Positions 14,064-41,594 of a stretch of 64,000 bases of DNA are shown here, piece by piece. Within the stretch, counting starts at the first letter, position 1; every line of letters begins with the position of its first letter. The stretch lies in the NCBI RefSeq assembly GCF_003334385.1, contig NZ_QOWN01000023.1; one strand, written 5' to 3'. The notes below the pieces were generated by a model that was not told the DNA's origin, did not search any database, and worked only from the letters and a program-made list of their open reading frames with translations. Both the position numbers and the translations under genes were made by a program. This DNA comes from Escherichia coli (lineage in GTDB: Bacteria > Pseudomonadota > Gammaproteobacteria > Enterobacterales > Enterobacteriaceae).

Positions 14064-14803
14064 ATGCTGCAAAATATTCGAATTGTGCTGGTGGAGACGT
14101 CACACACCGGCAATATGGGTTCTGTTGCCCGTGCCATGAAAACAATGGGATTAACCAATCTGTGGCTGGTTAATCCACTGGTGAAACCCGACTCCCAGGC
14201 GATTGCCCTGGCAGCAGGGGCCAGCGATGTGATTGGTAATGCTCACATCGTCGATACGCTCGACGAAGCGTTAGCCGGTTGTAGCCTGGTGGTGGGCACC
14301 AGCGCACGTTCCCGCACGCTGCCATGGCCGATGCTCGACCCGCGCGAATGCGGCCTGAAAAGCGTCGCTGAAGCGGCAAATACCCCGGTGGCGCTGGTGT
14401 TTGGTCGCGAGCGCGTCGGCTTGACCAATGAAGAGTTGCAGAAATGCCATTATCATGTCGCGATTGCGGCTAACCCGGAATACAGCTCGCTGAACCTGGC
14501 GATGGCGGTTCAGGTTATTGCCTATGAAGTGCGCATGGCCTGGCTGGCAACTCAGGAAAACGGCGAGCAGGTCGAGCATGAAGAGACGCCGTATCCGCTG
14601 GTCGATGATCTGGAGCGTTTTTATGGTCATCTGGAACAAACGCTGCTGGCAACCGGTTTTATCCGTGAAAACCATCCGGGGCAGGTGATGAATAAATTGC
14701 GCCGTCTGTTTACCCGTGCGCGCCCGGAAAGCCAGGAGTTGAATATCCTGCGCGGGATTCTGGCTTCTATTGAGCAGCAGAATAAAGGTAACAAGGCCGA
14801 ATA

Positions 14804-14804
<1 letters not shown>
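14064..14804 (+). CDS. trmJ: tRNA (cytidine/uridine-2'-O)-methyltransferase (SPOUT)
   Basis: 246 aa SpoU-type product; immediately upstream of isc region. Confidence 0.9.
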
Positions 14805-15180
<376 letters not shown>

Positions 15181-15238
15181 ACGCCACGATAAAAAAATGG
15201 CACTGAAGGTTAAATACCCGACTAAATCAGTCAAGTAA

Positions 15239-15263
15239 ATAGTTGACCAATTTACTCGGGAAT
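15239..15263 (+). promoter_or_regulatory. IscR type-1-like binding site in iscR promoter region
   Basis: ATAGTTGACCAATTTACTCGGGAAT matches the type-1 IscR consensus as I recall it at about 22 of 25 positions; lies ~85-110 bp upstream of iscR ATG. Confidence 0.5.
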
Positions 15264-15346
15264 GTCAGACTTGACCCTGCTATGCAATACCCCCACTTTT
15301 ACAATAAAAAACCCCGGGCAGGGGCGAGTTTGAGGTGAAGTAAGAC

Positions 15347-15835
15347 ATGAGACTGACATCTAAAGGGCGCTATGCCGTGACCGCAATGCTTGACGTTGCG
15401 CTCAACTCTGAAGCGGGCCCGGTACCGTTGGCTGATATTTCCGAACGTCAGGGAATTTCCCTTTCTTATCTGGAACAACTGTTTTCCCGTCTGCGTAAAA
15501 ATGGTCTGGTTTCCAGCGTACGTGGACCAGGCGGTGGTTATCTGTTAGGCAAAGATGCCAGCAGCATCGCCGTTGGCGAAGTAATTAGCGCCGTTGACGA
15601 ATCTGTAGATGCCACCCGTTGTCAGGGTAAAGGCGGCTGCCAGGGCGGCGATAAATGCCTGACCCACGCGCTGTGGCGTGATTTGAGCGACCGTCTCACC
15701 GGTTTTCTCAACAACATTACTTTAGGCGAACTGGTTAATAACCAGGAAGTGCTGGATGTGTCTGGTCGTCAGCATACTCACGACGCGCCACGCACCCGCA
15801 CACAAGACGCGATCGACGTTAAGTTACGCGCTTAA
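15347..15835 (+). CDS. iscR: Fe-S cluster assembly transcriptional regulator (Rrf2 family)
   Basis: 162 aa; N-terminal [19 protein letters not shown]; cluster-ligand cysteines in [13 protein letters not shown]. Confidence 0.95.
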
Positions 15836-15946
15836 TAAAAAGAATTCAGAATCAGGCCGGAGTGCTAAATACTCCGTAAACACGGTCGTACATCCAGCCG
15901 GTAGCCTGATTCCTTGCATTGAGTGATGTACGGAGTTTATAGAGCA

Positions 15947-17161
15947 ATGAAATTACCGATTTATCTCGACTACTCCGCAACCACGCCGGTGGACCCGCGT
16001 GTTGCCGAGAAAATGATGCAGTTTATGACGATGGACGGAACCTTTGGTAACCCGGCCTCCCGTTCTCACCGTTTCGGCTGGCAGGCTGAAGAAGCGGTAG
16101 ATATCGCCCGTAATCAGATTGCCGATCTGGTCGGCGCTGATCCGCGTGAAATCGTCTTTACCTCTGGTGCAACCGAATCTGACAACCTGGCGATCAAAGG
16201 TGCAGCCAACTTTTATCAGAAAAAAGGCAAGCACATCATCACCAGCAAAACCGAACACAAAGCGGTACTGGATACCTGCCGTCAGCTGGAGCGCGAAGGT
16301 TTTGAAGTCACCTACCTGGCACCGCAGCGTAACGGCATTATCGACCTGAAAGAACTTGAAGCAGCGATGCGTGACGACACCATCCTCGTGTCCATCATGC
16401 ACGTAAATAACGAAATCGGCGTGGTGCAGGATATCGCGGCTATCGGCGAAATGTGCCGTGCTCGTGGCATTATCTATCACGTTGATGCAACCCAGAGCGT
16501 GGGTAAACTGCCTATCGACCTGAGCCAGTTGAAAGTTGACCTGATGTCTTTCTCCGGTCACAAAATCTATGGCCCGAAAGGTATCGGTGCGCTGTATGTA
16601 CGTCGTAAACCGCGCGTACGCATCGAAGCGCAAATGCACGGCGGCGGTCACGAGCGCGGTATGCGTTCCGGCACTCTGCCTGTTCACCAGATCGTCGGAA
16701 TGGGCGAGGCCTATCGCATCGCAAAAGAAGAGATGGCGACCGAGATGGAACGTCTGCGCGGCCTGCGTAACCGTCTGTGGAACGGCATCAAAGATATCGA
16801 AGAAGTTTACCTGAACGGTGACCTGGAACACGGTGCGCCGAACATTCTCAACGTCAGCTTCAACTACGTTGAAGGTGAGTCGCTGATTATGGCGCTGAAA
16901 GACCTCGCAGTTTCTTCAGGTTCCGCCTGTACGTCAGCAAGCCTCGAACCGTCCTACGTGCTGCGCGCGCTGGGGCTGAACGACGAGCTGGCACATAGCT
17001 CTATCCGTTTCTCTTTAGGTCGTTTTACTACTGAAGAAGAGATCGACTACACCATCGAGTTAGTTCGTAAATCCATCGGTCGTCTGCGTGACCTTTCTCC
17101 GCTGTGGGAAATGTACAAGCAGGGCGTGGATCTGAACAGCATCGAATGGGCTCATCATTAA
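15947..17161 (+). CDS. iscS: Cysteine desulfurase IscS
   Basis: PLP-lysine motif [12 protein letters not shown] and active-site region SSGSACTS; 404 aa from [16 protein letters not shown]. Confidence 0.96.
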
Positions 17162-40121: not shown

Positions 40122-41594
40122 ATGGTACCTGTGGTCGCGCTTGTCGGGCGCCCTAACGTAGGAAAATCCACGTTATTTAACCGTCTAACTCGCACCCGAG
40201 ATGCGCTGGTTGCGGATTTCCCGGGTCTGACTCGTGACCGTAAGTACGGTCGTGCGGAAATTGAAGGCCGTGAGTTTATCTGTATTGATACCGGCGGGAT
40301 TGATGGCACAGAAGACGGTGTAGAAACCCGCATGGCGGAACAGTCGCTGCTGGCGATTGAAGAAGCGGACGTCGTACTGTTTATGGTGGATGCGCGCGCG
40401 GGCCTGATGCCGGCAGATGAAGCGATTGCCAAACATCTGCGCTCCCGTGAAAAACCGACCTTCCTGGTGGCAAACAAAACTGACGGTCTGGATCCCGATC
40501 AGGCAGTGGTTGATTTCTACTCGCTTGGTTTAGGTGAAATCTACCCGATCGCCGCGTCTCACGGTCGTGGCGTATTAAGTCTGCTGGAGCATGTGCTGCT
40601 GCCGTGGATGGAAGATCTCGCACCGCAAGAGGAAGTCGACGAAGACGCTGAATACTGGGCGCAATTTGAAGCGGAAGAGAACGGCGAAGAAGAAGAGGAA
40701 GACGACTTCGACCCGCAAAGTCTGCCGATCAAACTGGCGATTGTGGGTCGTCCGAACGTAGGTAAGTCTACACTCACTAACCGTATTCTTGGTGAAGAGC
40801 GCGTTGTTGTTTACGACATGCCTGGCACGACGCGTGACAGCATCTACATCCCAATGGAACGCGATGGACGTGAGTATGTGCTCATTGACACCGCTGGCGT
40901 ACGTAAACGCGGCAAAATCACCGATGCTGTAGAGAAATTCTCCGTAATCAAAACGTTGCAGGCCATTGAAGACGCCAACGTGGTGATGTTAGTGATTGAT
41001 GCGCGCGAAGGTATTTCCGATCAGGATCTCTCGCTGCTGGGCTTTATTCTCAATAGTGGGCGCTCACTTGTCATTGTGGTGAATAAGTGGGATGGCCTGA
41101 GTCAGGAAGTGAAAGAGCAGGTGAAAGAAACGCTGGACTTCCGTCTGGGCTTTATCGATTTTGCTCGTGTGCACTTTATCTCTGCCTTGCACGGCAGTGG
41201 TGTTGGTAACTTGTTTGAATCAGTACGTGAAGCGTATGACAGCTCCACCCGTCGTGTGGGGACCTCTATGCTGACGCGCATCATGACGATGGCTGTTGAA
41301 GATCACCAACCGCCGCTGGTACGCGGTCGTCGTGTGAAGCTGAAATATGCCCACGCCGGTGGTTATAACCCGCCGATTGTGGTGATTCACGGTAATCAGG
41401 TGAAAGACCTGCCTGATTCCTACAAGCGCTACTTGATGAACTACTTCCGCAAATCGCTGGACGTAATGGGATCGCCGATTCGTATTCAGTTCAAAGAAGG
41501 GGAAAACCCGTATGCGAATAAGCGTAACACCCTGACGCCAACCCAGATGCGTAAACGTAAGCGTCTGATGAAGCACATCAAGAAAAATAAATAA
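40122..41594 (+). CDS. der: Ribosome-associated double-GTPase Der (EngA)
   Basis: Two G domains each with P-loop GRPNVGKST; acidic linker [28 protein letters not shown]; KH-like C-terminus; 490 aa. Confidence 0.95.

Follow-up and report, generated by a model that had tools for sequence, protein, structure and literature searches.

The folded spacer between iscR and iscS of Escherichia coli corresponds to the known iscR stability element

Introduction

The stretch of Escherichia coli DNA analyzed here, 64,000 nucleotides long and called the window below, contains iscR and iscS, and the spacer between the two genes carries inverted repeats. What are these repeats for? The original prediction had taken them for a protective structure, which allows the iscR portion of the transcript to survive when the small RNA RyhB pairs near iscS and iscSUA is degraded. 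The span that it gave for the spacer, 15836-15946, runs exactly from the iscR stop codon (TAA, 15833-15835) to the iscS ATG and measures 111 nt. If the proposed mechanism is correct, iscR would be the cistron protected by the element, and iscS the first cistron of the degraded part:

15347..15835, + strand: iscR coding sequence, 162 aa (open reading frame list; iscR annotation in 5425 E. coli genomes)
15947..17161, + strand: iscS coding sequence, 404 aa, with ATG at 15947-15949 (open reading frame list; annotated iscS)

The 701 nt around the spacer are found in one copy in 5425 of 5426 complete E. coli genomes, and are 100% identical to K-12 derivatives, where they lie under annotated iscR and iscS.

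Dependence on RyhB, the role of RNase E and the need for a structure to obtain the iscR fragment are all known from the literature. Passages in PMC11572966, PMC12533949 and PMC7038943 that cite Desnoyers 2009 state that RyhB pairs between iscR and iscS and that the 3' part is then degraded in a manner dependent on RNase E, while the iscR part stays stable and is translated owing to a stabilizing structure in the intergenic region. [quoted passage not shown] In a Northern blot, full-length iscRSUA was down by 90% on RyhB overexpression (PMC11572966), and in an MS2-RyhB pull-down the iscS_iscR intergenic region was enriched 17-fold (PMC12533949).

Results

Identity and fold of the spacer

An Rfam scan of window positions 14700-16300 returned a full-length match of the spacer to RF01517 (model positions 1-110 of 110), with a score of 138.1 bits against a gathering score of 40 and an E-value of 1.7e-37. 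The match is located between the iscR stop and the iscS start on the coding strand. In the RF01517 consensus, the helices P2, P2a and P2b are accompanied by an outer helix, P1, and by a small hairpin on the 3' side, P3. Its source study is reportedly that of Desnoyers, Morissette, Prevost and Masse (2009, EMBO J 28:1551). The features of the folded part are as follows:

15836..15945, + strand: full-length match to RF01517, iscRS, "iscR stability element" (Rfam covariance model)
15849..15857, + strand: 5' arm of P2, GAAUCAGGC, the long-range stem of the original prediction (inverted repeat, fold, covariation)
15858..15876, + strand: P2a hairpin CGGAGU-GCUAAAU-ACUCCG, its local hairpin (inverted repeat, fold, covariation)
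15880..15902, + strand: P2b hairpin AC-CGG / CCG-GU (Rfam consensus structure, covariation)
15886-15897, + strand: 12-nt loop of P2b, UCGUACAUCCAG (part of P2b)
15904..15912, + strand: 3' arm of P2, GCCUGAUUC (inverted repeat, covariation)

Taken together with the mechanism described in PMC11572966, PMC12533949 and PMC7038943, the RF01517 match supports the idea that a protective structure spares iscR while RyhB triggers decay of iscSUA, and it means that the feature is already known. We consider it about 90% probable that the spacer serves as the stability element for iscR in the E. coli iscRSUA mRNA and acts as detailed in the Discussion.

The two arms of P2, GAATCAGGC at 15849-15857 and GCCTGATTC at 15904-15912, are complementary in nine of nine positions, and those of P2a (CGGAGT, 15858-15863, and ACTCCG, 15871-15876) in six of six. 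The exact complementarity claimed for the long-range stem is thus confirmed, as are the coordinates of its 3' arm, but the 5' arm had been placed at 15847-15855 and really lies 2 nt further to the right. The same holds for the hairpin CGGAGT...ACTCCG: it is present and enclosed by the stem as stated, but at 15858-15876, not at 15856-15874. P2 and P2a stack directly on each other. The whole spacer folds at -31.5 kcal/mol (z = -2.84), and folding of the junction recovers the stem with both enclosed hairpins in the minimum free energy (MFE) and centroid structures, as does folding of a 212-nt context. The 64-nt domain 15849-15912 reaches -25.6 kcal/mol, whereas its shuffles average -13.2 (z = -4.24), and none of 500 was as good. 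Of 2000 dinucleotide-preserving shuffles of the spacer, 17 contained a perfect inverted repeat of at least 9 bp. The base-pair probability of P2 is 0.68-1.00 in transcript contexts of 400-1100 nt. Exact copies of the 9-mers GAATCAGGC or GCCTGATTC also occur at window positions 26006-26014, 27193-27201 and 41411-41421 (11 nt), and are probably due to chance or related to REP elements.

Two helices of the Rfam drawing, P1 and P3, are without support. P1 (AAUUC, 15843-15847, with GAGUU, 15933-15937) is 71% paired with zero covariation across 16 taxa, its probability is about zero in longer contexts, and its 5' arm is replaced in the E. coli insertion alleles described below. The structure also loses stability when either helix is added as drawn: its energy of -23.1 kcal/mol becomes -21.3 with P1 and -20.1 with P3. 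These results concern the drawing of the model and leave membership in the family unaffected.

Hairpins that follow a cistron could also be an intrinsic terminator or attenuator, or could conceal an internal promoter for iscS. In Rahnella (L026), the iscR-iscS spacer does contain a terminator-like GC hairpin, GCCCGCGGGAA...UUCCCGCGGGC, which is followed by a U-run and has an A-run at its flank as well. In E. coli, however, 15836-15946 contains no terminator-like and no sigma-70 promoter-like site, direct reading of the sequence shows no U-run after either hairpin, and the full-length iscRSUA transcript is processed after transcription (PMC12533949, PMC11572966). A terminator, attenuator or promoter at this place is therefore hardly credible.

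Conservation and covariation of the folded domain

Loci anchored on IscR were compared for 80 species, plus further genera that were reached via IscR protein clusters; for the Kosakonia IscR P0132, a search for encoding contigs gave none. The spacer measures 100-280 nt in close relatives of Escherichia, and 3-70 nt in Yersinia, Serratia, Dickeya, Proteus, Vibrio, Aeromonas and the Alteromonadales. The RF01517 threshold is reached or exceeded in E. albertii, Citrobacter, Pluralibacter, Enterobacter spp., Pseudocitrobacter, Superficieibacter, Shimwellia and Cedecea, and narrowly missed in Mangrovibacter and Klebsiella sp. BIGb0407.

Helices P2, P2a and P2b are conserved with covariation in two alignments, a MAFFT alignment of 16 taxa (A1) and a 15-sequence alignment of the core clade, with Salmonella, Klebsiella, Raoultella and E. 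hormaechei among its members (A3). P2 is 100% paired in both, with wobble and compensatory changes. In A1, both bases of a pair have changed together twice, from A-U to G-C in Enterobacter Bisph1 and from G-C to A-U in Klebsiella BIGb0407, and four pairs show a wobble change on one side only. Compensatory changes affect five of the six P2a pairs in A1 (four of six in A3) and all five P2b pairs in A1. The covariation score of the whole structure in A1 exceeded that of all 500 column shuffles, and 85% of the A1 cells are paired, versus 36-47% in slid registers; for A3, the proportion of paired cells is 97.4%. P2 is intact in nine of nine positions in 22 of 23 enterobacterial taxa, the exception being Siccibacter (8/9), where the Y-shaped architecture is kept with unrelated inner hairpins. 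The sequence of P2a varies freely with its pairing kept, which fits a purely structural role. Judging by the loci compared, the folded domain is limited to close relatives of Escherichia.

The block that follows the domain has a different distribution. The arrangement GUGAUGUACGGAG(N5-6)GAGCAAUG, which contains the iscS ribosome binding site (RBS) and the RyhB target, is invariant in all taxa that have the element, and is also kept without the folded domain in Serratia, Yersinia, Dickeya, Pectobacterium, Tatumella, Mixta and Rosenbergiella. From this retention it follows that the RyhB/RBS module is older and more widespread than the stabilizer domain, which appears to have been added directly upstream of the block in Enterobacteriaceae proper. 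Because the RyhB/RBS block occurs without a structured domain in Serratia, Dickeya, Mixta and Proteus, RyhB control of iscS as such does not require the domain.

Several lineages have other arrangements after iscR. Taxa without RF01517 often have unrelated stable hairpins there, with z-scores of -2 to -4, as seen in Rahnella (L026), Rouxiella (L030), Erwinia (L029, L036), Pantoea (L033) and Providencia (L043), and the region is essentially unstructured in Serratia, Dickeya, Mixta, Proteus and Rosenbergiella. This suggests that structure at the iscR 3' end was gained repeatedly and independently. In Buttiauxella agrestis (L098, 1090-1420), the spacer is 331 nt long and GAATCAG is present, with the remainder of the P2 domain seemingly replaced and ERIC-like sequence at the flanks. 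In Enterobacteriaceae 4M9 (L099, 1090-1187), it is cut to 98 nt and forms a single hairpin. The element thus appears to have been remodeled or lost in some lineages.

Variation within E. coli

Polymorphism within E. coli is concentrated in the spacer relative to its flanks (seen also in loci L083-L088): its identity is 80-90% in 252 genomes and 90-95% in 1762, against at least 95% everywhere for the 701-nt region. P2a comes in two alleles, CGGAGUGCUAAAUACUCCG and CGGGGCGUAUCGCGCUCCG, the K-12 type and the O157/E. albertii type; both are hairpins, the linked changes keeping the helix. An A/G polymorphism at 15909 in the 3' arm of P2 makes either a U-A or a U-G pair.

A larger change is an insertion of 129 nt directly after the iscR stop, which 490 of 5426 complete E. 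coli genomes (about 9%) carry:

L082 637-765 (E. coli 08_3418): 129-nt insertion; also in L083, L084, L002 (1698-1822) and L098

In these alleles, the sequence that otherwise flanks the element on its 5' side is replaced, and the 5' arm of Rfam's P1 with it. The insertion is one long imperfect palindrome (-45.8 kcal/mol), is 76% identical to the sequence at the same site in Citrobacter werkmanii, and has a median of seven diverged copies (60-80% identity) per E. coli genome. By its resemblance to the consensus, it is a putative ERIC/IRU repeat.

REP elements

REP elements are barriers to 3' exonucleases, and the spacer could be nothing but an ordinary or decayed REP/BIME repeat, a generic stabilizer of the upstream message without adaptation specific to iscR. 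The arms of the stem hold the REP heptamers ATCAGGC and GCCTGAT, which are also present in a REP array at 14780-15202, and the element has been termed a REP structure in the literature (PMC7038943). The order of the heptamers is, however, swapped relative to REP. At E <= 10, the REP-type family RF02564 matches the upstream array, but not the spacer, and a blastn-short comparison of the spacer with the array shows no similarity, the best match in the window being 12 nt long with E = 0.31. The spacer is also single-copy, found at exactly one place per genome in 5425 E. coli genomes, and its orthologous conservation with covariation at one locus across genera likewise speaks against a generic repeat. 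REP identity is rejected on covariance model, BLAST and copy number, and we regard a generic REP-type stabilizer as very improbable. The term "REP" that the literature uses for the element is best understood as an analogy of function.

The array itself is a REP/BIME tandem array between trmJ (14064-14804) and the iscR promoter. Its period is 91 nt, with full matches to RF02564 (naRNA4, CssrE; 72.2 bits, gathering score 59.5) at 14866-14937, 14957-15028 and 15048-15119 and weaker copies at both ends. The repeated spurious open reading frames "MRRVMRLIRPTVNRTV..." are this array read as protein.

RyhB pairing

The RyhB gene is not in the 64-kb window. The 90-nt RyhB sequence used here is a single-copy locus with 100% identity in 5425 genomes and scores 83 bits with RF00057. 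Pairing was scanned with RyhB nt 30-70 against 40-nt target windows, with penalties for opening energies. As the original prediction had anticipated, the best site falls on the RBS of iscS:

15921..15950, + strand: predicted RyhB site over the iscS Shine-Dalgarno sequence (SD; GGAG, 15932-15935) and AUG (15947-15949) (duplex prediction)

All of the best accessibility-corrected duplexes fall on these positions. The best one pairs 15921-15950 with RyhB nt 39-69, with a hybridization energy of -23.4 and a total of -8.3 kcal/mol, and consists of three blocks, GAGUGAUG, GGAGU (the SD) and GAGCAAUG. The last of these (15942-15949, including the AUG) pairs perfectly over 8 bp with CAUUGCUC, RyhB nt 40-47. 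The core of RyhB is thus complementary to the SD/AUG region, and the target block is invariant across Enterobacterales, but energy alone does not discriminate: in a hybridization-only scan of both strands of the 64 kb (mean -12.8, standard deviation 4.3, minimum -33.5 kcal/mol), the iscS site, at about -24 kcal/mol, lies about 2.6 standard deviations under the mean and outside the top 12, with many stronger chance sites. As hybridization energy fails to single out the iscS site, the link to RyhB rests on the literature and on conservation; the computed duplex is compatible with RyhB targeting, and is not proof of it. An unconstrained RNAduplex run of RyhB against the junction was discarded, as the whole molecules zip together at a meaningless -55.7 kcal/mol. 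No public 3'-end map with an end of the iscR fragment at the stem was found, and the supplements of Adams 2021 have no iscR/iscS entry.

Translational control of iscS

Since the structure adjoins the RBS of iscS, one may ask whether it serves mainly for translational control of iscS, for example as an RNA thermometer like Yersinia RF02783, and not as a decay barrier. RF02783 ("IscS-1 ICR thermometer") does match at the same junction in Yersinia, Serratia, Photorhabdus, Hafnia and Dickeya, with 118-218 bits in the Yersinia, Serratia and Photorhabdus loci (L017, L018, L020, L016, L011, around 1596-1779), the E. coli SD is predicted to be paired in a 215-nt context (probability of being unpaired, 0.00), and the conserved P2b loop is complementary to the block next to the SD. 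In window positions 14700-16300, however, RF02783 has no match even at E <= 10. The predicted accessibility of SD and AUG and the probability of P2 are nearly unchanged from 25 to 42 C, and the predicted masking of the SD stems from the downstream coding sequence at 15972-15977, not from P2.

The 3' arm of P2a, ACUCCGUA (15871-15878), is complementary in eight of eight positions to UACGGAGU (15929-15936) in E. coli, and was considered as an anti-SD switch. It was rejected: the pairing is kept in 60.7% across taxa, which is no better than in shuffles (431/500), and its probability is about zero. On these grounds we think a role mainly in iscS translation improbable, and prefer the decay barrier. 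Within 120 nt, CGGAGU and ACUCCG each occur twice, and the SD segment CGGAGU (15931-15936) is complementary in six of six positions to ACUCCG at 15972-15977, iscS codons 9-11, a pairing that is part of the MFE structures of the 212-215-nt contexts.

A candidate pseudoknot

The complementarity between the P2b loop and the RBS can be delimited to the core of the loop:

15887..15894, + strand: core of the P2b loop, CGUACAUC, candidate pseudoknot arm (complementarity, conservation)

It is complementary over all eight positions to GAUGUACG (15925-15932), an invariant stretch overlapping both the 5' edge of the iscS SD and the central part of the RyhB site. Among core-clade taxa, the loop core has a pairwise identity of 0.97, as high as that of the RBS, whereas the P2a loop reaches 0.36 and the junction 0.48. 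The complementarity measures 8-9 nt in each core-clade taxon (p = 0.002-0.025), with Atlantibacter at 6 nt (p = 0.27); changes in the loop flanks stretch it to 9 nt in Klebsiella/Raoultella and in ESNIH1, and the duplex would be worth -9.6 to -12.4 kcal/mol. In outer genera with the same P2 stem, loop/RBS complementarity is absent. As loop core and RBS partner are both invariant, covariation cannot test the pairing. It is possible, if doubtful, that the element is a loop-to-tail pseudoknot in the clade of Escherichia, Salmonella, Klebsiella, Enterobacter and Citrobacter; the P2b loop could instead be a binding site for a protein or a small RNA.

Discussion

Our results, combined with the literature, support a model in which the spacer has two functional parts. 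The 5' two-thirds (15849-15912) form a stable Y-shaped domain, whose 9-bp closing stem P2 bears the hairpins P2a and P2b; the 3' third (about 15919-15949) carries the RBS of iscS and the RyhB site. On iron limitation, Fur repression of ryhB would be lifted, and RyhB, helped by Hfq, would pair over the SD and AUG of iscS. This pairing would block translation and recruit RNase E, and iscSUA would be degraded as a result. Decay that runs back from the cut would halt at the folded domain, which we infer to be a physical barrier to 3'-to-5' exonucleases. A stable and translatable iscR-only mRNA would remain, so that apo-IscR would accumulate, and accumulated apo-IscR could activate suf.

The system is a textbook case of discoordinate operon regulation, where one small RNA turns a polycistronic mRNA into a message for the regulator only. 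The switch couples iron sensing by Fur and RyhB to the change from Isc to Suf Fe-S assembly via apo-IscR. The element is already known; its recovery from raw sequence shows that the original prediction was sound, but adds no new biology. A few additions may help to refine the Rfam model or to design mutants: P1 and P3 lack support, the element is not a REP, its taxonomic range is narrow next to that of the older RyhB/RBS block, a conserved loop is complementary to the RBS, and an ERIC-like insertion allele exists. If the pseudoknot were real, it could hide the processed iscR fragment's 3' tail from exonucleases, a role that Rfam gives to P1, or it could rival the ribosome and RyhB for the iscS RBS and in this way set the threshold of the switch.

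How does the element compare with known systems? From RF01517 there is no essential difference: locus, sequence and the helices P2, P2a and P2b are the same, and E. coli is the organism in which the element was defined. The curated structure does omit the loop-to-RBS complementarity to which our comparative data point. With REP elements, it shares the property of being a stable G+C-rich intercistronic palindrome that shields upstream mRNA from 3' decay, but a REP is a single hairpin, whereas the element is a branched, Y-shaped domain. The RF02783 loci have the same operon junction and the RBS/RyhB block GUGAUGUACGGAG...GAGCAAUG in common with the window, but their spacers are only about 55-70 nt long and lack the P2 domain, and the function proposed for RF02783 is temperature control of iscS translation, in contrast to the stabilization of iscR by RF01517. 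A further parallel is the action of NarS on nirBDC-cysG (PMC7038943), where, as in iscRSUA, a small RNA binds within a polycistronic message, whose downstream portion is degraded and whose upstream portion is stabilized. The NarS case, however, makes use of a transcription terminator, whereas iscRSUA has what that source calls a REP-type structure, and what we describe here as a folded domain that is not a terminator.
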